The notes below the pieces were generated by a model. That model did not search any database. It was not told where the DNA came from and saw only the letters and a list, made by a program, of their open reading frames with translations. The position numbers and the translations under genes were made by a program. Shown in pieces: positions 4,127-38,550 of a DNA stretch of 64,000 nucleotides. This stretch comes from Longimicrobiales bacterium (GTDB taxonomy: Bacteria; Gemmatimonadota; Gemmatimonadetes; Longimicrobiales; Gaopeijiaceae): the NCBI GenBank assembly GCA_965116095.1, contig OZ220481.1, positions 1,525,192 through 1,589,191 of the forward strand. The letters are read 5' to 3'. How positions within the stretch are numbered: the first letter of the stretch is position 1; each line of letters begins with the position of its first letter.

Positions 4127-7100
4127 CTAATTGCCCGCCTTGAGCATCGCTTCGCGCAGGCTCGCCGTCGTTTGAATTTCGTAGCGCCCCGCATCTCGGC
4201 CGCGAAACACCTCGGGCGGCGGCCCTTTCAGCAGAGCCCGCACGCTTCCGGTGGCCGGATCTCTCACGATCGTCACGGGTCGCGAATCGTCCGCCCCGAT
4301 TTGAACAAGGCCCTCGGGACCTTCCAGCTGAATGACGTCGATCCGCTCCGCCAGATCCCCCGCGAGCGGAACCGCAAAGAAGAAGTAACTGTCGCCGTAG
4401 GCCCCCGCATCCGGCTCAAACGCAAGCGAGCGCAGCGCGCGACCGGCCGCGTCCCGAAGGTCGACGCGGTAGGAGCCCGCCTCGGTCGGAAGCTGCGGCG
4501 CAGCCTCCAGGACAAGCGGACTCAGGAGCCTTAGCTCGCCGTCCAGGACGCCTCCCCGAAGGATGAGAGACCTCTCTTTCTCCGCAGCCGATCCCTCGTC
4601 CAGCGAAAATGCGGCGCGCCCTCCCCCTTCGGCCTCCTCCCGGTAGTCGATCACCTTCTCGTAGTTCCAGTCGCTCAGCCAATTCAGTCCCGACCGGTAG
4701 CAGTACCCCATGAAATCCCGGTATACCACCGGATCGACCAGCGCTTCCGAGCCGAAGTCGTAGCCCCAGACGCCGATCGCGCCGTCTACGTGCGGAAAGT
4801 CCGGGTCCGCGTCCGTCACGCCGCCGCACGGGGCGTGCACCAGATTCAAGCTGTGGCCCACCTCGTGGGCCAGCTCCATCGGCCACGGCTTCCCGATGCT
4901 CGCCCACCCCCCGAGTCTGGCCCTGCCCCGCACGTAGCCGTTGCGGCTTGCGCCGACTCCGTAGTAATAGCCCGTCTCTCCGTCGACCGCCCGAAGAAGC
5001 TCCATCTCAAGCACGAGCTCCCACTGACCCCCGTCGCTCGTGAGGTCCAAACCGGTGTAGTAGGGCTCGCGGGAACGGGCGGTAAACTCCCCGAAGGGAA
5101 AGCTGTTCCTGAACGGCGCCGTCTGCTCCCCCGTTCCGTCGATGCCGCCGACCCATTCCAAAGCCGAGGAATCCGGATCGACCGCCTCGAGAACGGGCAC
5201 GACGGTGAGCCGCATCGGCGGCGCGCGAATCACCTCGAGCGCACGCCGACCCGACTCCGGGAAGCGCGTCGAGCTTCCCTCCGAAAGCGGAATGCCGCCC
5301 GAGCGAAGCTCAACGACCAGCTCGGTCCCGGGCTCGAGCGCATGCCCCGGAATTACGGCGTTGTGGGAGTGCTCGAGCCCGGATTCGTCGAAGCGGACGG
5401 AAAGAAGGTCGGCCCTCCGCTCCGCCGTCGTCTCGAATACGCGCCGCCCGTCTCTGAAAAAGGTCGCGACCACCTCGGGCTCGAAGAACGCGCCATCCCG
5501 ATCCGCAACGACGAAGACGCGAAGGAGCGCGTCGCGCCCCGCAATGAGGCGCGTGTCCATGCCGGGACTCTGCACCGATTGAATGAGGTACGCCCAGGGG
5601 ATCCTCACCTTGACCTCCTCCACGTTTTCGCATCCCCGGCCGGAGTGGCTCCAGAGGCCTCGGAGCCACCTCTGAAACGAGGGCGCGGGCGAAGCGCAGA
5701 GCTCCGTGTCGGCGAAGTTGAAGGCGCGCAGTCCTCGAAGCTCCTTCATCGAGCGGGGCAAAACGCCGGAAAGCCCGTTGCGGCTCAGGTCAAGCCCCCT
5801 CAGCTCCGCAAGATGCGCGATCTCTCGGGGCACGCCGCCCGCCAGATCGTTTCCCGAAAGATTGATGCTGCGAAGCTCGGAGAGGTGGGCAAGCTCATGA
5901 GAGAGCGCGCCCGCCAGGCCGTTGTCCCTTAAGTCGAGCGCCACGACGCGGCCATCGCTTCTTCGCGCCGAGACGCCGTGCCACGCGCTGGGCGGAAGAG
6001 GCCCTCCCCAATGCCGGGCGTTCGACCATCCTTCTCCGTCCGTGTCTTCGAAGAGCCCCGCCAGGGCAAGACGCTCGACTTCCTCGTCATCGCAAAAACG
6101 CACCCAGTCCGGCTCCGCAAGCTCCTTCGCCCAGTCGCGCATCTCGCGGTTGCTCCGGGGAACGCACAGCCCGGACTCCGAGCTCTGAAAGGACTTCAGA
6201 CCCCCTTTATCGCGGATGCACGCCGGGACCACGCCCTTGAGCCGCGTGGACGAGATCCACAGGCGGCCCAGCGATCTCGCTCCGCGACAGAGCTTGGCGG
6301 AAAGCCGCCCGTCGATTCCGGTCGAGGTAAAATCCAATTTCTCCAGCGTTTCGATGTCCCACAGGGTTTCCGGAATCGACCCGGTCAGACCGGTTTCCGA
6401 CAAATCGAGCTCCTTCAGCCGGGAAAGGCGTCCAAATTCCCAGGGTATCGTCGAATCGATTTCAGAATTCCGATCCAAATACAGGCGCTCCAGACTCCGC
6501 AAGCCGCCCAGCTCCGGAGGGAGAGCGCCGCTCAGCCGGTTGCTGCCAAAACTCATGACCTTGAGCGAAGCAAGCGCCCCCAGCTCTTTGGGCAGCGGTC
6601 CGGTCAGACGGTTTCCGCTCAACTGCATGCTCTCCAGTTTGGCGAGCGCGCCCAGTTCGGGCGGAATCGGTCCTTCAAGGGCCGCGTTGTAGAGCCCGAG
6701 ATCCACGAGGCTCTCCATGCGTCCAAGCTCCTTCGGAAGCGGACCGCTCAGGTCGCTGTGCCCCAGATAAAGCCACTCCAGCTTCTTGAGCTGGCCCAAT
6801 TCGGGAGGAATCGATCCCTCAAGGGGGTTTTCGCCCAACCAGAGCACCTCCAGATTCTCGAGATTCCCCAGCTCCTTCGGGATGCCGCCCGTAATTTCCG
6901 CCCGAAGCGCGTGAAATCGGCGCAGCTTTGTGAGGTTTCCCAGCTCCGAAGGGATCGGGGCGCCGAAGGCATTCCCTGAGAGCGACAGCTCCTCTAAGCG
7001 GCTCAGCTCGCCCAATTGAGACGGGATCGGCCCCTCAAGCGCGTTGCCGTAGAGTTCCAGAACTCGTAGCGCCGGCAGCTGCGAAATGGACGCCGGGATC

Positions 7101-8134
7101 GAGCCGCTCAAGCCGTTGTAGGTGAGCGTTAAGGTATCAAACGCCTCAAGCGGGGACGGAATCTCCGGTATTTCGCCCCGAAGATTCTCATTTTCCGCAA
7201 TGGTCAGACGCTTCAACCGGGAGAGATCCCAGATGGAAGACGGAAGCTCTCCGTCCAAGCCGTTGGCCACTAGGGACAGCCGAGTCACGAACCCCGCGGA
7301 GTCGGCTTCGACGCCCCGCCACTGGCTGATCGGCGCTTCCGTGAGCCAGTGCTCTCGCCGTCTCCACCCCTCGCCTCCCGTCGCCTCGTACAACTCTCGC
7401 AGCGCCTCCCGATCCGGCGTGATCGGAAGACAGACCACGACGCGATCGCCTTCGTTTTCGATCGACCTGAGCCACTCCAGCATCTCTCGCGGCAGACACA
7501 GTCCGCTCGCGTCGAACCAGAAGGTGCGCAAGCTGAGATCTTGAAGCCAAAGCGGAAGGACGCCCTTCATCTGCGTATTCGCCGCGTCGAGAAACTCAAG
7601 CTTCTTCAGGCCGGCAAGAGAATCCGGGAAGTTGCCCGAGATGCCCGTGTCGTTCAAGGGCAGCCGGCGGAGCTCCCCAAGGCCGCCCAGCGCGCCTGGA
7701 AGGGCTCCGGCAAGCTCCGGGTTATAGCTCAGGTCGAGCGCTTGAAGACCTTCCAAGTCGCCGACTTCAGGGGGGAGTTCGCCCCTCAGGTTGTTCTCGT
7801 ACAGCTCTAGACGGCTTACCCGCCCGTCGTCCCGCACCCAGACGTTTGCCCAATCGGCGAGCGGCGCGTCGGTGAGCCAACCGGTCTTGCGCGCCCAACC
7901 GGGACCGCCCAGCGCATTGTACATCGCCACGAGAGCCGCCCGGTCGGCTTGAACCAAACGAACGCCATCGCGCGCGTCCGCAACCTCCGGCGCGACGGCC
8001 GAGCGGTCCGGGCTGCACGACGCCGCTGCCGCCAAGGTCAAACACGCCCAGGTTGTTGAACGGCGACGAGACCGGTTGGCCTCGCGCCCTCGCCTAGGCG
8101 CCCCGCCAAACCCCCGCTCCGCGACAGTCGTCAC
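4127..8134 (-). CDS. Large lipoprotein-like secreted protein. It has three plant-type leucine-rich-repeat modules, each headed by an LRRNT-like cap, followed by a C-terminal metzincin-like zinc metallopeptidase domain.
   Basis: 24-residue LxxLxLxxNxLxGxIPxxLGxLxxL repeats. Three caps of the form LxxLYxATxGxxW...W.GV. HEVGHSLNLVH fits the HExxHxxGxxH metzincin pattern with N at the Gly position, as in pappalysin/M43. The ORF-track start (GTG at 8224) overlaps the upstream gene. I propose GTG at 8134, which overlaps the upstream TGA stop as GTGA, giving an N-region and hydrophobic stretch ending AAASC (lipobox-like). Confidence 0.7.
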   Translation of the reverse strand: MTTVAERGFGGAPRRGREANRSRRRSTTWACLTLAAAASCSPDRSAVAPEVADARDGVRLVQADRAALVAMYNALGGPGWARKTGWLTDAPLADWANVWVRDDGRVSRLELYENNLRGELPPEVGDLEGLQALDLSYNPELAGALPGALGGLGELRRLPLNDTGISGNFPDSLAGLKKLEFLDAANTQMKGVLPLWLQDLSLRTFWFDASGLCLPREMLEWLRSIENEGDRVVVCLPITPDREALRELYEATGGEGWRRREHWLTEAPISQWRGVEADSAGFVTRLSLVANGLDGELPSSIWDLSRLKRLTIAENENLRGEIPEIPSPLEAFDTLTLTYNGLSGSIPASISQLPALRVLELYGNALEGPIPSQLGELSRLEELSLSGNAFGAPIPSELGNLTKLRRFHALRAEITGGIPKELGNLENLEVLWLGENPLEGSIPPELGQLKKLEWLYLGHSDLSGPLPKELGRMESLVDLGLYNAALEGPIPPELGALAKLESMQLSGNRLTGPLPKELGALASLKVMSFGSNRLSGALPPELGGLRSLERLYLDRNSEIDSTIPWEFGRLSRLKELDLSETGLTGSIPETLWDIETLEKLDFTSTGIDGRLSAKLCRGARSLGRLWISSTRLKGVVPACIRDKGGLKSFQSSESGLCVPRSNREMRDWAKELAEPDWVRFCDDEEVERLALAGLFEDTDGEGWSNARHWGGPLPPSAWHGVSARRSDGRVVALDLRDNGLAGALSHELAHLSELRSINLSGNDLAGGVPREIAHLAELRGLDLSRNGLSGVLPRSMKELRGLRAFNFADTELCASPAPSFQRWLRGLWSHSGRGCENVEEVKVRIPWAYLIQSVQSPGMDTRLIAGRDALLRVFVVADRDGAFFEPEVVATFFRDGRRVFETTAERRADLLSVRFDESGLEHSHNAVIPGHALEPGTELVVELRSGGIPLSEGSSTRFPESGRRALEVIRAPPMRLTVVPVLEAVDPDSSALEWVGGIDGTGEQTAPFRNSFPFGEFTARSREPYYTGLDLTSDGGQWELVLEMELLRAVDGETGYYYGVGASRNGYVRGRARLGGWASIGKPWPMELAHEVGHSLNLVHAPCGGVTDADPDFPHVDGAIGVWGYDFGSEALVDPVVYRDFMGYCYRSGLNWLSDWNYEKVIDYREEAEGGGRAAFSLDEGSAAEKERSLILRGGVLDGELRLLSPLVLEAAPQLPTEAGSYRVDLRDAAGRALRSLAFEPDAGAYGDSYFFFAVPLAGDLAERIDVIQLEGPEGLVQIGADDSRPVTIVRDPATGSVRALLKGPPPEVFRGRDAGRYEIQTTASLREAMLKAGN

Positions 8135-9417
8135 CCGGCGCCGCCCCGAATCTCGTCTCTCATGGCGCCCAGAGCGCGGAGGGCGCGCTCGACGTGCTCC
8201 TCCGTGTTGTAGACGTGGGGGCACAGCCGCACCCCGCCGGTCTCGGCGCCCGCGATCCCGAATTCGCGGTAGAGGCGATCCAAGACGACGCTACGGTTAG
8301 GTCCCGCGCGCGCGATGCACACGCCCAGGGACAGCTCCTTTCGCATCGGGGTGACAAGCTCCAGCCCCAACGCGCGCATCCCCTCCTTCAGGCGCTTGGC
8401 CAGCTCTTGAATGCGGGCCTCGATTCGCGCGGGTCCGATCTCCTCGTGCAGCGCGACGGCCGTCCCCAGCGCGCCCAAGCAGGCATCGTCCCGCTGTCCC
8501 AGAGACTCGAACTTGCGGGCGCCCATGGGATCGGGTTCGATGTCGGCTCCCCAGCTGGGCGCCACGCTGTGCGGCCAGAGCTCGGAGACGCGCTCCGCGC
8601 GAACATAGAGAATTCCGGCCTCCTTGGGACCCATGAGCCACTTGTGGGCGGACGCGCTATAGGAGTCGCACCCCATCTCTCGCAGGTTGACGTCGGCCGC
8701 GCCCCAGCTCTGCGCGCCGTCCACGTGCACAAAGACGCCCCTCCTTCGCGCCTCCAAGGCAATCTCTCGCACCGGCAGGCGGATGCCTGTCACATTCGAG
8801 ATGTGCGTGAGCGCGAGGACCCGCGTGGATGCGCCGAGCGCCTCCAGGAACGGGGCCGCGAGTTCGCCCGCGTCGCTAGGGCTCGTTGGCGTGGACGCCT
8901 TGCGCGTCCGCACGCCCGTTCGCTGCGCCCGCACCTCCCACGCCACGTTGTTCGTGGGGTGATTCTGATCCCAGAGGAGGACCTCGTCGCCCGGACCCAG
9001 ATCCAGGCCCGCGCAGATGGTGTTATTGGCCTCGCTGGTATTTCGCACGATGGCGATCTCGTCTGCGGATGCGCCTAGCAGCTTCGCGATCCGCGCGCGG
9101 GCATCTTCGGCCATCCCCCGGAACTTCGCGCGGTTCTGGAAGGAGCAGTCGCGGTCAATATCCCGCGAGAGCTCCTCCACGCGCGCAGCCACCTCAATCG
9201 ACGAAGGGCAGAGGTTTGCGGCGTTCATCGGCACGCGCTCTTCGGCAAAGGAGAACCGGGCCCTCACGTCGTCCCATGGGACTGACCCGCCCGCCCGTGG
9301 AGTCTCCGCGCGGAGACGCCCGCGCCGGATTTGACCGTCCAAGAGACCGGCGACGGCGCCGGGAAGCGCCGCGCACCCAAACGTCCCGCCCAGAAAATCG
9401 CGCCTCGAAGGGTCCAA
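8131..9417 (-). CDS. Class V (fold type I) PLP-dependent aminotransferase / cysteine desulfurase-like / isopenicillin-N-epimerase-like enzyme with a twin-arginine (Tat) signal peptide
   Basis: SRRDFLGGTFGCAALPGAVAG Tat motif. Class V signature around SASAHKWLMGPKEAGILYV (PLP lysine). Start proposed at TTG (codon LDPSRRDFL) preceded by GGAGGG. The ORF-track ATG at 9546 would overlap the divergent gene's ATG. Confidence 0.75.
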   Translation of the reverse strand: MDPSRRDFLGGTFGCAALPGAVAGLLDGQIRRGRLRAETPRAGGSVPWDDVRARFSFAEERVPMNAANLCPSSIEVAARVEELSRDIDRDCSFQNRAKFRGMAEDARARIAKLLGASADEIAIVRNTSEANNTICAGLDLGPGDEVLLWDQNHPTNNVAWEVRAQRTGVRTRKASTPTSPSDAGELAAPFLEALGASTRVLALTHISNVTGIRLPVREIALEARRRGVFVHVDGAQSWGAADVNLREMGCDSYSASAHKWLMGPKEAGILYVRAERVSELWPHSVAPSWGADIEPDPMGARKFESLGQRDDACLGALGTAVALHEEIGPARIEARIQELAKRLKEGMRALGLELVTPMRKELSLGVCIARAGPNRSVVLDRLYREFGIAGAETGGVRLCPHVYNTEEHVERALRALGAMRDEIRGGAG

Positions 9418-10854: not shown

Positions 10855-12591
10855 CTATTCGGACAAAGGGTGTGACGCGCGCCTCTGGACCGCGGCGATC
10901 GCGTCCAGCTTCTCCGCGACTTCGGGGGCGATCTCTTCTGCGGGAACAAAGTCGGCGAGTTCGTGAAAGCTCTTCTTCCGCAAGAGGTTGGGAAGGTTGA
11001 TCCTTCGGAAGTAACTCCTGAGGATCGGCTTCAGAACCTCGTCGCTCGCCTTGATCCCTTGGTCCCAAGGCGACGCGCCTTTCAGCGTGCGCAGAGCGCG
11101 AGCGACTTCCGAGATCGCCGCGCGCATCGAGGCGAGTCTATTCTCCTCTTCTTGGGGCGCAAAGAGGGGCGCCGGATCACCCTCCTTGGCCGAAGCGCGC
11201 GCGTACGCCTCAAGCGTCGCCTTGGAGCAGAGGTAGTTCTCAGTCTCCCGGCGCTTCCAAGAGAGGCGCTGCAGGCGCGGCTCGCCAGCGTCCGTTTTGT
11301 CAAGCCGATCAAAGAGGGCGACGCCCTTTAAGTCCGGGAGCGCTTCTCGCAAGCCATAGAAGTGGCGCATGGCGTCGGACGGTCGATTGCCGACATAGTG
11401 AACAAATGGCTTCTCCAATGCGCCCGCCGCTTCCTCGTTGGCCAAGCGCCGCGCGAAGGCCTGAAGTATGGCGAGATCGGTGGAACCCTCCAAGTACAAG
11501 ACCCAGCCGGTCTGTTCGGCTTGGAGATAGTGATCCGCGCTGATCTCGGCCAGGGCTTTGCGCGTCTGACCTGGTCGGTCGATCCGATGCGGCGCTCCCA
11601 CAAAGGAGATCACCACGTCCTTTCCGGCCGCCTCGTTCAGCAACGCCTCCGAGTGGGTGGCCGCGATAATCTGGCTACCGCTCTCGCTGGCCGCGCCCGC
11701 GATCTCTCCGTAAATCTGTCGCTGCCGTATGATCTCCAGACCGGCGTCCGGTTCGTCCAGCAGGACGACGGCGCCGGGATTTGCATGCATGTACGCAAGA
11801 ATCAAGAGCGTCTGCTGCAGGCCCCGCCCCGCGGAGGAGAGGTCCAGCGCCGCGCCGCGCTCCCGATACCCCAGCGTGATTTCGCCCCGCTCCCGGAAAT
11901 AGCGGGGCTCCTCCAGCTCCACTCCGAAGAGCGCCTTGATCCGCGCCTTGAGCAGCTCCCAACGTTCCAGATCCCGCTCCGAGATGCGAAGACAGAGATT
12001 TCGGAGCACTTCGGCTGTGCGCCCCTCGCCGATTCTGACATCCACCGCGCCTTGGTCGAGACGCGTTTCCACGGCGGCCAAGCCGGAGAGCGGAGGAAGG
12101 AAAACGACGCGGGTTGAGGCCGCTTCCTTGGGGACCGGCATCCGCGCCGGCCGCTTCCCCTCTTCCAGCCGCAGAGGTCGGCAGTAGAGCGACTCTTCAT
12201 TGGCGTAATCGAATTCAAGGCCGCACCGCCAAGTCTTGCCCCTTTGGATGCCTTGGACGACGATGTCGATCCGCACATTGCTTGTCCGCGCGCTGCCCCG
12301 GACGCGGCGAACGTCGCGGGTGCGCAGATTGCGCCAGAGAAGTTTGGCGGAGGGATGCGGGATCGCGAGCGCGTCTCGGCGGTTAATCGCGACGCCGGGC
12401 CGGCGCTCCGGCGCGCTCTGGCCGGCGCGCTTCTCGCTCCAGCGCTTGACGCCGATATCCCAGAGGGCCAGCGCCTGCATCGCCGAAGTCTTGCCCGAGT
12501 TGTTCGGTCCGACGAAAACGACGGGGTTTCCGAGATCGATCTCGATCTCGTTGAAGCGCTTGAAGTTCCGCACGGTCAGCTTCACTAGCAT
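10855..12591 (-). CDS. OLD-family (overcoming lysogenization defect) class 1 nuclease: N-terminal ABC-type ATPase fused to a C-terminal TOPRIM domain. Candidate anti-phage defence protein.
   Basis: Walker A FVGPNNSGKTS, ABC signature LSSAGRGLQQ, Walker B VVLLDEPDAGLE, H-loop IIAATHS. C-terminal VLYLEGSTDLAIL (TOPRIM Glu) and ALFDRLD (DxD). At 578 aa it is similar in size and motif order to phage P2 Old (586 aa). Confidence 0.7.
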   Translation of the reverse strand: MLVKLTVRNFKRFNEIEIDLGNPVVFVGPNNSGKTSAMQALALWDIGVKRWSEKRAGQSAPERRPGVAINRRDALAIPHPSAKLLWRNLRTRDVRRVRGSARTSNVRIDIVVQGIQRGKTWRCGLEFDYANEESLYCRPLRLEEGKRPARMPVPKEAASTRVVFLPPLSGLAAVETRLDQGAVDVRIGEGRTAEVLRNLCLRISERDLERWELLKARIKALFGVELEEPRYFRERGEITLGYRERGAALDLSSAGRGLQQTLLILAYMHANPGAVVLLDEPDAGLEIIRQRQIYGEIAGAASESGSQIIAATHSEALLNEAAGKDVVISFVGAPHRIDRPGQTRKALAEISADHYLQAEQTGWVLYLEGSTDLAILQAFARRLANEEAAGALEKPFVHYVGNRPSDAMRHFYGLREALPDLKGVALFDRLDKTDAGEPRLQRLSWKRRETENYLCSKATLEAYARASAKEGDPAPLFAPQEEENRLASMRAAISEVARALRTLKGASPWDQGIKASDEVLKPILRSYFRRINLPNLLRKKSFHELADFVPAEEIAPEVAEKLDAIAAVQRRASHPLSE

Positions 12592-14696: not shown

Positions 14697-15321
14697 GAGT
14701 CTCGGGTAAGTACCCGTAGGGACGCGTGAGCGCGCCAGTGGATGGAGGCTCGCCTCTCCATCGGGGTCGCAGCGCTTTGAGCGAATGTCCGTGGATTCGG
14801 TCGCGCCCCACAGTGGGTGCTTTGTGGAGGCGAAGCATTTCGACGACCGACCTCAGCATGTCCGTTCGAATCCGCTTGCTCTTGGGAAGCACTCCTTGAG
14901 GACGCACGGGTTCGGCGCCCCTGACGGCGCTGAGCGCGCAACGGACTGACGCGGAAGAGTGTGCGGCTCTTGACGCGAAATGATGTCGAGCGACTCTCTT
15001 TCGCCGAGAGGAGGGGAAATTGCGGAAAATCCAACCCAGCGGCATTATGGATGATGCAGTCGCTCTGCCCCATTCTCCGCCTGACAACCCTTAGTCCACA
15101 TCAACATGAGCCAAGACGGATTCCAGCGCGCGCTTGACCAGATCCGGTCCATTGCCACCCACCAAGCGGACAAGGGCCGGCTATTCGAGCGACTGATGGC
15201 GGCGTTCTTCAAGGAGGACCCCGTTTATCGAGAGCGATTCTCGGGAGTCTGGCTGTGGAAGGACTGGGTCGACAAGAGGCTCGCGGAGGCCGCAAAGTAC
15301 TGTCCTTCAAGGCGATACCAT

Positions 15322-15335
15322 CCCCCCCCCCCCCC
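15322..15335 (+). repeat. Homopolymeric poly-C tract (14 C) inside the restriction-modification gene, at the nuclease/helicase junction. Slippage-prone contingency tract.
   Basis: Seen directly. Translated as PPPPP in the 15106 ORF, which terminates 5 codons later. 13 or 16 C would fuse it in-frame to the downstream frame (GIDLVAEEADG...). Confidence 0.9.
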
Positions 15336-18300
15336 AATTTGGTTTAGATAGGGCTGATCTCGGCATTGATCTGGTCGCAGAAGAGGCGGACGGAAGTGGC
15401 TGGTGCGCGATCCAGTGCAAGTGCTACGCGCCGGGAACGCGCGTAAGCAAACGACACCTCGATTCCTTCATCTCGGCGTCGGCGCGCGAGCCGTTCACCG
15501 CGCGCATCGTGGTCGACACCGGGGACTCTTGGGGTCCGAACGCCCTAAAGACCCTCAAGGGGCTGAAGCCCGCCTGCGCGGTTCTCAGATTCGGCGACCT
15601 TGCGGACCGACGCTTTGAATGGCCGGATCTTTCGGCGCATCGGCCCGAGGATCTCCGCTACGCCGGCGCGCCGTTTACGCTTCGTCCGCACCAGAAAGAG
15701 GCGCTGGACGATGTAATGGCCGGCTTCGAGGCCTTTGATCGCGGCAAGCTGGTGATGGCATGCGGCACCGGCAAGACCTTTACCGCCCTTCGGATCGCGG
15801 AGGCGGTCGCGGGCCCCGGAGGCCGGGCGCTTTACTTGGTGCCTTCGATCTCACTGTTTGCGCAGTCTATGCGCGAGTGGGCCACGCAGAAGTCCATTCC
15901 TCACGGCTACATCGGCATCTGTTCGGATACAAGCGCGGGGCGCTACAGAGAAGACGCCACGCTGATGGAGCTTGAGATCCCGGTCACGACCTCGCCGGTT
16001 CGCATTTCGGAGGAGCTTCGCAAGGAGCGGCCGGAGCAGATGACGGTCGTGTTTTGCACCTACCAGTCGCTCCCGTTGGTGGAGCGCGCTCAACAAGAGG
16101 GGGCCCCGCCGTTCGATCTCATCCTCTGCGACGAGGCGCATCGGACCACCGGAGTGGAGCGAGCGGACGACAAGAAGACCTCGCCCTTCGTCCTCGTGCA
16201 CGACAACGCCCGAATTCGTGGACGCAAGCGGCTGTACATGACCGCGACGCCGCGCATCTACACGGACAGATCAAAGAGGAAGGCCGCCAAGCACAGCATT
16301 GACGTCTTCTCGATGGACGAGAAAGAGATCTACGGCCCCGAATTCCACCGCCTTTCCTTTTCGCGAGCGATTGAACGCGAGCTGCTCTCCGACTACAAGG
16401 TCGTCATTCTCGCCTTGGCGGAAGACAGGGCGAACGCAGTGCTCCGGAAGCACGTCTCCAGTAGCGAGGCGAGCGAACTCAACATCACCGACGCCGCCAA
16501 GATCATGGGCTGCTGGCGGGCGCTTCAGCGACGCCAGGCTGCGGGAGGCAACGGGAAAGCGGACGACGAGTCCGAACGCCCGCTTACGCGGGCGATCGCC
16601 TTCGCGAATACCATCAAGGCCTCCCGTCTTTTGGAAAAACACTGGGACGGCGTGGTCGAGCAGGCGATCAGCATGCTGCCGCCGGAGGAACGGGCGAGCG
16701 CGCTGCGATGCTCTACGAAGCACGTAGACGGAAAGACGCGGGCGCTGGACCGCAAGGCGCGGATCGAGTGGCTGAAGGGCAAGGAGGACGGCGTCTGCCG
16801 GATCCTGAGCAACGCCCGCTGTCTTTCGGAGGGCGTCGACGTACCGGCGCTGGACGCCGTGTTCTTTACCGCGCCGCGCAGGTCTCCCGTCGAGATCGTC
16901 CAAGCGGTGGGACGGGTCATGCGCAAAACCCCGGACAAGGACTACGGGTACATCGTGCTCCCGGTCGCCATTCCGCCGGGAGTGTCGCCGGAGAAGGCGC
17001 TGAACGACAACAAACGCTTCGAATCCGTGTGGGAGGTCCTGCGCGCGCTCCGCTCCCACGACGACCGGTTCGATGCCGAGGTCAACCGGCTCGATCTGAA
17101 GAGGCCGGAGCGGATCATTATCGACATCGACGACTCGGATCAGTGGGAGATCGCATTTCCGCCGCTCGACCTACCGCCCGAGGCGATCTTCGCGAAGATC
17201 GTCGAGAAGTGCGGCGACCGAAAGTACTGGAAAACGTGGGCCAGTGACATCGCCGACATTTTTGCTCGCTTAGTGGAGCGAATCGGGAGTCTTCTGGCCG
17301 ATCCAGCAAACGAAGCGCTCAAGGAGTGGTTTGACGGCTTCCACCAAGAGCTGCGCGAGTCGATCAACAAGTCGGTCAGCGAGAGCGACGCCGTAGACAT
17401 GGTTGCGCAACACATCCTCACTCGACCGGTTTTCAACGCGCTCTTCGAGGGATACGACTTTGCTCGTGGAAATCCCGTCGCGCGGGCGCTGGAGCAGCTG
17501 CGCCAAGACTTCGGAGAGTTTGGGCTGGAAAACGAGCTCCGCGACATGGAGCCCTTTTATAAAAGCGTCCGGCTTCGCGCCAGAGGTTTGGACGACAGCG
17601 CGGCGCGCCAACAGGTACTGAAAGAGCTGTACGAGCACTTCTTCAAGATCGCGCTAAGCAAGGCAGCCGAGCGCTTGGGAATCGTCTACACGCCCGTCGA
17701 GGTGGTGGACTTCATTCTTCGAAGCGCGGATCACGTGCTGCGGGAAGAGTTTGGCAAGGGGCTTACCGACGAGGGGGTACATGTACTGGATCCCTTCACC
17801 GGGACAGGCCTCTTTCCAGCGCGAATGCTCCAGCTTGACCTGATTGACGACGCCGACGTGGCGCGCAAGTACCAAGAGGAGATTCACGCAAATGAGATCG
17901 TACTGTTAGCCTACTACATCGCAGCGGTCAACGTCGAAGAGGCTTTTCGCGCAAGAAGGGGCCTCGGAAGTGAATACAGCCCTTTCGAGGGCATCGTTTT
18001 GACTGACACATTTAACATGAATGAGTGCCAGACGAGCGTCTTCCTGTCAGAAAACAGCGACCGATCCAGCCGGCAGGAACAGGCGCGCATTGAAGTAGTC
18101 GTTGGCAATCCGCCTTGGTCTGCAGGGCAACGGAGTTCTGCCGACAATAACCCAAACGCAAGATACCCGGCGGTGGAGGCGCGAATCGCGAAGACCTACG
18201 CGGTGCGCTCGACAGCAGCAAACAAAAACAGCTTGTACGATTATTACAAAATGGCCATTCGATGGGCCTCTGACCGCATCGGCGATCAGGGCGTCGTCGC

Positions 18301-19107
18301 TCTCGTAACGAATGGGTCTTGGATCAGCGGCAACGCGGATTCGGGAGTCCGCGCGTGTTTGGCGGAAGAGTTTACGTCAATCCATGTAGTGAATCTTAGA
18401 GGTAATCAGCGCACACAGGGCGAACGGTCTCTTCAAGAGGGCGGAAAGATTTTTGGCCAAAGCTCCCGTGCGCCAGTAGCGATTACGCTATTGGTTCGTA
18501 ACCCCAAGAAATACAAGAACGGGTGTCGTATCTTGTATCACGACATCGGCGACTACCTGAAACGAGAAGACAAACTCAAAATTCTGCGCAGGGTCAGGTC
18601 GATTCAGGGAATATCCCAAATCAATTCTAAAAATGGATGGCGAGAGATCACACCAGATCCACATCATGATTGGATCGATCAGCGAGATCCTCGCTTTCAA
18701 CGTTTTTTTCCAATTAGCGTAAAGGTCAGTGGAGCAGATAGAGATGCAAGACCGGATGCAGTGTTCCGCAAATACAGTCATGGGTATCAGACCGGCAAGG
18801 ACGCTCATGTGTATAGTTTCTCGCCCAAAGCCTGTCTAGACAATGCCCGCAGTATGATTGCTGAATATCACTGTGCCGTGCGTGAATACGCTGATAACAA
18901 GGATTCAGTTTTTCATCGATTTGCTTCAAATATAAAATGGAATGCAAAACTGCGAAATCGCGTTAAAAATGGACTTGCGCGCAAATTCTCCGATAAATAC
19001 CTGAGAAATGTTGCATATCGACCCTTTGTTGGACAAATTCTCTATGGGGATCAGTTTTTTGCACACAGGCCCGCACACACAAGAGCCATGTTCCCTACTA
19101 CTGAACA

Positions 19108-19140
19108 TCGGGGAACAGGAATCGGGGAACAGGAATCGGG
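19108..19140 (+). repeat. Direct tandem repeat of a 14-nt unit (tcggggaacaggaa, 2.4 copies) inside the restriction-modification gene
   Basis: Seen directly. Translated as EQESG / NRNR in the two overlapping frames. Confidence 0.8.
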
Positions 19141-19190
19141 TCATTTGTGTTTCGGGTTTGGGATCGACGAAGCCCTTCTCGACGCTCGTC

Positions 19191-19440
19191 GTCAACGTGC
19201 TTCCCGACTCGGAGCTGGTGTCAAAAGGACAGTGCTTTCCCCGTCACCTATACCGAACAACCGAGCGATCTGCCTTCCCGGCATTGGGTCCGGGAGAGAA
19301 TTCTCGGTCTTTATCGTTGACAGACTGCCGGATTACCACATCCTTACAAACGGGCAGTGCTTCCCTCGCTGTGATTGGGTCCATTCACGGGGGTACCTTT
19401 GACCACCCTGACGTGTTTTCCCAGGAGTCGCCGACACTCC
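19191..19440 (+). repeat. Imperfect tandem duplication of a unit of about 122 nt, with the two copies read in different frames (VVNVLPDSELVSKGQCFPRH... versus IVDRLPDYHILTNGQCFPRC...)
   Basis: Both overlapping ORFs (ending 19402 and starting 19008) carry an LPD-x7-GQCFPR peptide about 122 nt apart, not a multiple of 3. Confidence 0.6.
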
Positions 19441-20198
19441 AGCGAATCGACAACATTACCGACGCGGCCTTGCTCCGGTTTCGGGCTGAGTACCAAGACG
19501 AGGACATTCAAAAGGACGACATCTTCAACTACGTCTACGGCATCCTGCACTCGCCGCGCTATCGCGACCGGTTCAAGAACGACCTTTCCAAGGGCCTGCC
19601 GCGAATTCCCTTTGCTCCTGACTTCGACGCCTTTGCTGGAGCGGGATCGGCGCTCTCGGAGCTGCATCTTCGCTACGACGACGAGAATCTCACGCGGTAT
19701 CCACTAAAGGTGGTGTCTTCTACGGGCCGCGATTTGGAAGCCGGCGATTTTCGATTGGGGAAGCGCCGGATGCGCTTTGCGGACAAGACGAAGCGCGATA
19801 CGCTGATCGTGAACGACCAAGTGAGACTCTTCGGCATTCCGAAGGAGGCCCACCGCTATGTCGTTGGCGGGCGAACGCCGCTTGAGTGGTTTATCTTCTA
19901 CTTTTTCGTAAAGACCGATAAGAGGAGCGGAATCGTAAACGACGCGAACGGGTGGTTTGAAGACCCTCGAGACTTGGTGCCAGCCATTGAGCGACTTGTC
20001 TATGTGAGCGTCGAGTCGGCTAGAATCGTTGATAGTCTCCCCGACCCGTTCGGCGACGTGCATAATGCATAGCTGCGTGAGGTCCGCGATATTTGAGGCC
20101 TGACTGAGCTTTCGACCACAGGCGCGTCGGAGTCGCGTCTTCCCTCCTTGCGGTTTCCTCGGACGAGCTGGCAAAGGCACTGGAGCGAATCTGGAAAC

Positions 20199-38339: not shown

Positions 38340-38532
38340 ACGCGCTTTCCCTTTCCTAAGTGCGCGCCGGAAAGCCCGGCCCGAGCCCATGACGGACCCG
38401 TTCAAACCGAAGCCTCCCGCGCCTTCCCGCACACGCAAACCCAAGCGCATGCGTTTCGGCACGCCTATATAGGTGCAAGAGTCGTGCCAAAAATGAGAAA
38501 AATTGCGTAAATACCTGCGGTTCAAGGAGATA

Positions 38533-38550
38533 CCCCCCCCCCCCCCCCCC
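38533..38550. repeat. Homopolymeric C18 (G18 on the minus strand) tract in the divergent promoter region between the giant protein gene and the PQQ dehydrogenase gene
   Basis: Seen directly. About 190 bp from each flanking start codon. Confidence 0.9.

Follow-up and report, generated by a model that had tools for sequence, protein, structure and literature searches.

Phase-variable restriction-modification (RM) genes are well known among the Type III mod genes of Haemophilus, Neisseria and Helicobacter, the Type IIG gene cj0031 of Campylobacter, and the Type I hsd genes. We analyzed a comparable element, a run of 14 cytosines (C14), in a gene for a predicted Type ISP RM enzyme from a Longimicrobiales bacterium (contig OZ220481.1, positions 1,525,192 to 1,589,191 of the forward strand; this whole stretch of 64,000 nt is called the window, and positions are counted from its first letter). 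As in the known phase-variable RM genes, a long perfect repeat within the reading frame sets the frame of a defense or epigenetic gene that is otherwise intact, and these are the features by which contingency genes are recognized: a long perfect repeat in an open reading frame (ORF) and a repeat length that decides whether the gene is open or closed. It differs from them in that the enzyme is a single-polypeptide Type ISP protein, the tract lies in a linker of the nuclease domain, the organism is a GC-rich environmental member of the Gemmatimonadota and not a host-adapted pathogen, and variation in tract length is something that we infer. A literature search, incomplete in coverage, returned no phase-variable Type ISP enzyme and no RF2-type frameshift in a restriction gene.

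Direct reading of the window gave exactly 14 C at positions 15322-15335 (+ strand), confirming the initial annotation, which had placed such a run inside an RM gene. From composition, ∼0.017 runs of C or G of at least 14 nt are expected in the window. Besides C14 and a second tract of 18 C (C18, see below), the longest C/G run is no longer than 7 nt and the longest other run is A8. The genome GC content of 68% given in the same annotation did not hold for the window, which measured 65.1%. Upstream and across the tract, an 81-aa ORF in frame 1 (15106..15351, +) encodes the N-terminal helices of the Mrr-like nuclease domain, without any nuclease catalytic residue, and closes with a TAG at 15349-15351, five codons past the last CCC. 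This ORF, already recorded as protein P0121, is 59-66% identical to full-length Type ISP homologs over their first 64-75 residues, in agreement with its earlier assignment as the nuclease N-terminus. Frame 2 is open from 5' of C14 as far as 19402, and from ∼15326 it carries the same protein onward (GIDLVAEE...AIQCK) with 68-74% identity across ∼1300 residues, so the proposal that one nuclease domain resumes past the tract was also borne out.

Removal of one C gives a single ORF of 1431 aa, and addition of two C gives, by arithmetic, the same frame; C13 or C16 fuses frame 1 to frame 2 through HPPPP(P)QF. The predicted restoration of frame thus stood, but the restored ORF still ends at 19402, within the specificity domain. 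The last ∼224 residues are encoded in frame 0 (19401-20072), which is reached only via a frameshift cassette or a change in a 14-bp repeat. The earlier reading had overlooked this repeat and frameshift device in the downstream ORF, as well as the second poly-C tract and its matching flank.

Pfam searches gave the order Mrr_cat_2, ResIII/DEAD, Helicase_C, ISP_coupler, N6_Mtase, Type_ISP_C, which is the architecture of single-polypeptide Type ISP RM enzymes and identifies the gene, at the level of sequence, as one of these. The enzyme body in frame 2 (15362..19106, +) comprises the nuclease core (GIDLVA...IQCK), the ResIII/Helicase_C ATPase, the ISP coupler, the N6-adenine methyltransferase (NPPW), and the specificity domain through Loop V. 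The nuclease domain, interrupted by the C14 frameshift, matches Mrr_cat_2 at 3e-31; ResIII, Helicase_C and ISP_coupler match at 2.3e-20, 2.5e-09 and 3.6e-39, respectively, and N6_Mtase at 5.1e-08, with DPFTGTG and GNPPW present in the translation. The translation also shows Walker A (GTGKT), DEAH, motif I (FTGTG), NPPW and D...QCK, and the catalytic GIDLVA...IQCK block lies entirely 3' of C14. Domain order and motifs are shared with LlaGI and LlaBIII (PDB 5FFJ, 4XQK), the Type ISP enzymes that have been characterized. LlaBIII 12-219 aligns with the N-terminal 233 residues of the window protein, the window GIDLVAEE...AIQCK pairs with LlaBIII GVDLVAEQ...AIQAK, and the C-terminal region aligns with both enzymes. 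These two lactococcal enzymes differ from the window gene in having a single Loop VI and neither internal repeats nor a frameshift signal, and the nuclease linker of the window clade is 17 residues longer.

The closest relatives are proteins at 62-73% identity from metagenome assemblies, many of them from sponge or marine metagenome-assembled genomes (MAGs). A PQQ dehydrogenase encoded nearby assigns the window to Longimicrobiales (Gemmatimonadota); the best marker match among the reference genomes is 75% identical, and the source species is absent from that set. In the homolog alignment no stop or frameshift was found across 4.9 kb outside the C tract and the repeat junction, and the product of C13 combined with a +1 frameshift is a stop-free protein of 1654 aa. 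The Type_ISP_C profile is divided between frames, with its positions 2-120 in frame 2 and ∼109-339 in the ORF at 19008..20072 in frame 0. It becomes whole only if a +1 shift at 19397-19400 (1.4e-77) or a change in the repeat (2.4e-79) is assumed; the match at 1.4e-77 comes in two stretches because of an extra segment. The specificity-domain tail itself (frame 0, 19401..20072, +) is intact.

The break in the specificity domain coincides with a perfect repeat of a 14-bp unit, (ATCGGGGAACAGGA)x2.4, at 19107..19140 (+), which by alignment is located just past Loop V (LlaGI 1324-1331), at the junction of Loop V and the following hairpin. We compared the window with the six other loci of its closest clade (L001, L002, L085, L086, L087 and L088), all from Longimicrobiales MAGs. 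A repeat stands at this one junction in all seven loci, in differing units: (AGCCG)x35 in L001 (7051-7228), (GAGCC)x45 in L086 (5526-5750), (AGCCG)x11 in L087 (5112-5166), a 10-nt unit (CAGGGAGCCG)x10 in L088 (4647-4746), (GA)x16 in L002 (7052-7085), and a short (GA)x4 in L085; copy numbers of long repeats are unreliable in short-read assemblies. The more distant relative L089 (3.7-Mb contig, 69% GC) has two repeats in one gene, (AG)x22 at 4670-4713 in the body and (ATCC)x14 at 5868-5923 at the specificity junction. We had considered the split Type_ISP_C match as a second inactivating lesion of a pseudogene, and dropped this explanation since the same layout, repeats and prfB-type cassette are found in all relatives of the clade. 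At two further loci, L090 (6001-6846) and L091 (6001-6840), both from the search for A-state fusions described below, a ∼280-aa Type_ISP_C ORF stands alone beside transposase genes, and the region upstream of it contains no enzyme body. Both ORFs are apparently left over from Type ISP genes that were disrupted, are flanked by insertion sequences, and are uninformative on switching.

Past the repeat there are two diverged copies of a ∼40-residue segment in different frames, and the same layout is present in the six relatives. Copy A (frame 0, 19134..19253, +) runs from NRVICVSGLGSTKPF to PDSELVSKGQCFPRHLY, and copy B (frame 2, 19256..19399, +) from NNRAICLPGIGSGREF to PDYHILTNGQCFPRCDWVHSRGYL. 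By alignment (chain index plus 164), the duplicated segment corresponds to the LlaGI core hairpin 1347-1358 and Loop VI 1365-1374. The GQCFPR motifs of the two copies lie 125 nt apart in the window and 128 nt apart in the other six loci; both values are 2 mod 3. Across the six relatives, the variable columns of region A are distributed over A-frame codon positions 1/2/3 as 8/3/21, mainly position 3; in region B the counts are 3/25/9 in A-frame numbering, which is mainly position 3 of the B frame. Each copy thus varies at the third position of its own frame, indicating purifying selection in each frame and hence that both frames are translated.

In LlaGI, His1368 of Loop VI reads the +3 guanine, and the LlaBIII counterpart Asn1360 reads adenine. 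The window and its relatives alike have His at the 1368-equivalent position in copy B and Glu in copy A, and intact sister homologs have His, Glu, Gln or Asn there. We suggest from these residues that cassettes A and B may differ in target specificity. In the window, with 2.4 copies of the 14-mer, the body is read in the frame of copy B; one copy more (3.4) would shift it to the frame of copy A and the tail, and one fewer (1.4) to the third frame. Repeat length could in this way select cassette A, cassette B or a dead frame, and hence the specificity or an OFF state. Among the clade proteins and loci examined, five, with the window counted, show the B state; all others read in the third frame. 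An A-state fusion protein was absent from the 294 search matches, which are tail-frame ORFs of 94-286 aa.

Copy B ends ...RGYL followed by TGA, and the specificity tail resumes in the +1 frame. The copy closes with (A/C)GGGGGTAYCTTTGAC, the 16-nt cassette of the prfB +1 frameshift, which reads CGGGGGTACCTTTGAC in the window (19388..19403, +) and AGGGGGTATCTTTGAC in the six relatives (at 7478-7493 in L001). In the prfB site, an SD-like (Shine-Dalgarno-like) element, AGGGGG or, in P. fluorescens, CGGGGG, is separated by UAU from the shifty stop CUU UGA, and the stop is followed by C. The six loci are identical to the E. coli prfB site, AGGGGG UAU CUU UGA C; the CGG GGG found in the window matches the P. 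fluorescens form. GGGGG-N3-CTTTGAC is restricted to the seven Type ISP loci within 1.15 Mb of sequence (the window and related loci), and the cassette is invariant in 7/7 clade loci despite variable flanks. A +1 shift at CUU-U would give ...SRGYL-DHPDVF...RIDNI, in which the gap between GQCFPR and RIDNI is 23 residues, compared with 24 in the intact single-copy homolog P0008. With its body read in the frame of copy B and its cassette intact, the gene would have C14 as its only reading-frame break.

The likeness to prfB extends over the 16-nt signal, with its SD-like (A/C)GGGGG, 3-nt spacer, CUU UGA and following C. It differs from prfB in position, being in a specificity domain and not at codon ∼25, in that no autoregulatory loop is evident, and in the window spacer, which is UAC and not UAU or UCU. 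Here the signal apparently serves to connect one of the two alternative cassettes with the C-terminus that they share. Switching of C-terminal portions has parallels elsewhere. In Neisseria NgoAV, a truncated HsdS changes specificity, and repeat-driven C-terminal switching is reported for H. canadensis (PMC2823697). As here, a repeat toward the 3' end of the gene alters the C-terminal sequence that is made. Compared with these two cases, the alternatives here are tandem homologous copies of a recognition segment in different frames, one of them needing a ribosomal frameshift to regain the common tail. The H. pylori Type ISP gene HP0667-HP0669 is also split by frameshifts, stated not to be due to repeats, and its HP0669 methylase-plus-specificity fragment methylates alone (PMC3936762). 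Both genes are thus frameshift-split Type ISP genes, but the breaks in the window gene are at repeats and those in H. pylori are not.

We next consider the surroundings of the C14 tract. Between WLWKDW and GIDLVA, 23 homologs share an invariant 29-residue linker, VPHFN...PESGPPxRFDLTDT, and C14 occupies the site at which they have PP, PPP or PPPP. In L001 and L002, the closest loci whose DNA was read, the linker prolines use CCG codons and there is no homopolymer. The window linker is atypical over ∼94 bp around the tract (15268..15361, +), with 31 residues instead of 29, and this patch is unique among 120 homologs. The lowest-GC3 (GC at third codon positions) 24-codon window of the first 1000 codons falls in it, at 0.42 compared with a mean of 0.77. 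On the 3' side of the tract, the spacing F-G-L-x-x-x-D-x-G fits LlaBIII (Y-G-I-P-K-K-D-T-G) and not the clade. The patch may have been derived from a different, lower-GC allele; a protein search with it as query for a donor returned solely the 81-aa ORF itself.

The best-supported reading of these data, to which we give a modest edge in probability, is that C14 is a hypermutable contingency tract that is currently OFF. Slipped-strand mispairing at C14, in the linker of the Mrr-like nuclease, would change the tract length. With 14 C, translation would stop after 81 residues, ahead of every nuclease catalytic residue; a tract of 13 or 16 C, the ON state, would be translated as HPPPP(P)QF in the linker and would join the nuclease to the helicase and methylase portion of the protein. 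The second repeat, between Loop V and the hairpin, would choose between two Loop VI cassettes in different frames, and the window gene, in the cassette-B frame, would reach the specificity tail by a prfB-type +1 shift at CUU UGA C. We prefer contingency over decay because the gene has no lesion except at repeats, because the gene family of this lineage is built around hypermutable repeats (with two in the one gene of L089), and because a one-proline change in the linker should be tolerated, given that homologs carry two to four prolines there. Partial activity has a precedent in that LlaGI with an N-terminal deletion of residues 2-165, and hence no nuclease, is a stable, active translocase. 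More tentatively, and with slightly less than an even chance in our estimation, the gene is a three-state specificity switch, in which A is read straight into the tail, B is joined by frameshifting at a level tied to RF2, and the third frame is dead, with C14 as a separate on/off control.

Several points count against the contingency interpretation. Actual variation in the length of the tract is presumed from one assembled sequence, and none of the six other clade loci has a homopolymer of at least 9 nt at the linker site. The linker patch is without the conserved FN, PES and RFDLTDT residues, and could mark damage rather than design. No ribosome-binding site was obvious by sequence ahead of the next in-frame start, GTG 15509, so the OFF state may silence methylation too, and a methylation-silent OFF state in a living cell would be indistinguishable from a dead gene. 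Ribosomal frameshifting at the prfB-type cassette is a prediction from its sequence, and L089 has A and B copies without such a cassette.

The tract could also be a consensus error, with a true length of C13 or C16, an assembly that is off by one or two bases, and a nuclease in frame. Homopolymer length is the main residual error of long-read data and rises with run length, the closest genomes are long-read metagenome-assembled chromosomes, and the source contig spans 2.86 Mb; that one C fewer gives a clean ORF in an otherwise intact gene fits an error as well. A run of 13-16 C would nevertheless still be a mutational hot spot, so that such an error alters the current state of the gene and not the nature of the tract, and C18 together with the long perfect repeats of the relatives shows that tracts of this kind do get assembled here. 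We regard a miscounted run as unlikely. The initial annotation had left the choice between a phase-variation switch and an inactivating slip. The switch is favored by the lesion-free gene, the repeats throughout the clade and the native Pro-Pro position of the tract, and the slip survives as a rival that we consider quite unlikely. Under a fixed slip the nuclease, and probably the whole protein, would be lost in an early pseudogene without reversible function. The uniqueness of the linker patch among 120 homologs, the missing conserved residues and the lack of any homolog with a tract at this site all suit such a loss, as do the frequent inactivation of restriction genes and the authentic non-repeat frameshifts in H. 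pylori Type ISP genes (PMC3936762). Against this, the other 4.7 kb are free of stops and stray frameshifts, all catalytic motifs are retained, the frameshift cassette is undamaged, as are both copies of Loop VI, and a perfect 14-base run far exceeds a simple slip within CCG CCG CCG.

The remaining alternative is recoding at C14 itself, by a +1 ribosome shift on CCC-C with poly-proline stalling or by RNA polymerase slippage, so that full-length enzyme would be made constitutively at a low level. Both CCC-N sites and stretches of proline are prone to +1 shifts, and a +1 shift, the direction also taken at the prfB-type signal of the clade, is what would bring ribosomes from frame 1 into frame 2. 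However, the tract has no stimulatory element at a suitable distance, neither an SD-like sequence nor a stop close by (the TAG is five codons past the last CCC), and the arrangement occurs in no homolog; RNA polymerase slippage, for its part, is best documented for A/T runs. We consider recoding improbable, and retain the contingency tract as the preferred explanation.

The second long tract of the window, C18, is at 38533..38550 (+), between a gene for a CarboxypepD_reg surface protein (- strand) and a PQQ dehydrogenase gene (+ strand). A 13-mer, TTCAAGGCGATAC, is found just 5' of C14 (15306..15318, +), and the 13-mer directly 5' of C18 is TTCAAGGAGATAC (38521..38533, +). TTCAAGGNGATAC has only two exact matches in the window, one beside each long C tract. 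With at most two mismatches, three matches were found compared with about two expected by chance. The local alignment score of the 40-mers upstream of C14 and C18, computed unanchored, was equalled by only 0.8% of random pairs. Because looser matches are not rare, the weight of the shared flank rests on both exact copies adjoining the only two long tracts of the window. No further copy of the 13-mer was found in 1.1 Mb of related loci.

Several origins of the shared flank were examined and rejected. A mobile element carrying the 13-mer with poly-C had 0 matches in 185,579 reference genomes and 0 in viral contigs; two metagenome matches were on unrelated contigs of 37% and 50% GC and are probably due to chance. 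No sigma-70-like promoter or terminator was found at either tract, and the 13-mer, judged by eye, fits neither the IHF site nor the sigma-54 promoter consensus. One idea is that the flank arose from short ectopic copying between the two sites.

The CarboxypepD_reg-repeat protein encoded on the - strand has ∼1.5 thousand residues, a probable start near 38349 and a lipoprotein-like signal, and C18 is ∼185 nt upstream of it. The sole match in the window to the sigma-54 consensus, TGGCACGACTCTTGCA, is perfect and lies at 38474..38489 (-), ∼45 nt downstream of the tract (G18 on this strand) and ∼125 nt upstream of the probable start, which places the tract at roughly -70 to -87 relative to the predicted promoter. 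Poly-C and poly-G tracts are known in the promoter regions of Bordetella fim and of Neisseria porA and opc. C18 is like these in being in the upstream control region of a surface-protein gene, but the C18 promoter fits sigma-54, and the tract would act on enhancer phasing and not on -35/-10 spacing. A phase-variable enhancer phasing of the surface-protein gene is plausible from this arrangement. On a related Longimicrobiales chromosome (L066, 3575-3586), a C12 tract (G12 on the coding strand) is 5 nt upstream of a probable GTG start that opens a signal-peptide-like N-terminus. Clustered poly-C and poly-G runs of up to 30 nt near contig ends in the short-read MAG contigs L008, L009 and L020 look like assembly artifacts.

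Some other features of the Type ISP locus were recorded. GC3, at 0.77 over the first 1000 codons, drops to 0.49 over the final third of the gene (∼18100-20072), and at 18-19 kb the GC content of the window is down to 0.50; the end encoding the methylase and specificity domains looks like a module with another origin. An AAA_15/AAA_21 ATPase gene is located at 10855-12591 (-), 2.5 kb 5' of the Type ISP gene, and the two are possibly part of a defense cluster. Further upstream, at 4127-8224 (-), there is a gene for a leucine-rich-repeat protein of 1365 aa.

Homopolymer switches of RM genes are familiar from a few host-adapted pathogens, and a switch of this kind in a Type ISP gene from an uncultured, GC-rich lineage of the Gemmatimonadota would extend the known range of contingency loci. 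The arrangement of repeat, dual cassette and prfB-type signal is a more unusual result than the C14 tract itself, and the context outweighs the tract: this gene family combines in-gene repeats, two copies of a DNA-reading loop in overlapping frames, and a frameshift signal identical to that of RF2. If the three-state switch and the contingency tract are real, they would be the first RF2-type programmed +1 frameshift outside prfB in a defense gene and the first phase-variable Type ISP enzyme. Annotation routinely describes such genes as a truncated large ORF plus a ∼100-285-aa 'Type_ISP_C' fragment, and they are likely dismissed as pseudogenes. If the devices work as proposed, one gene would provide two specificities and an off state, and both the methylome and the phage-defense spectrum of a clonal population would be heterogeneous.
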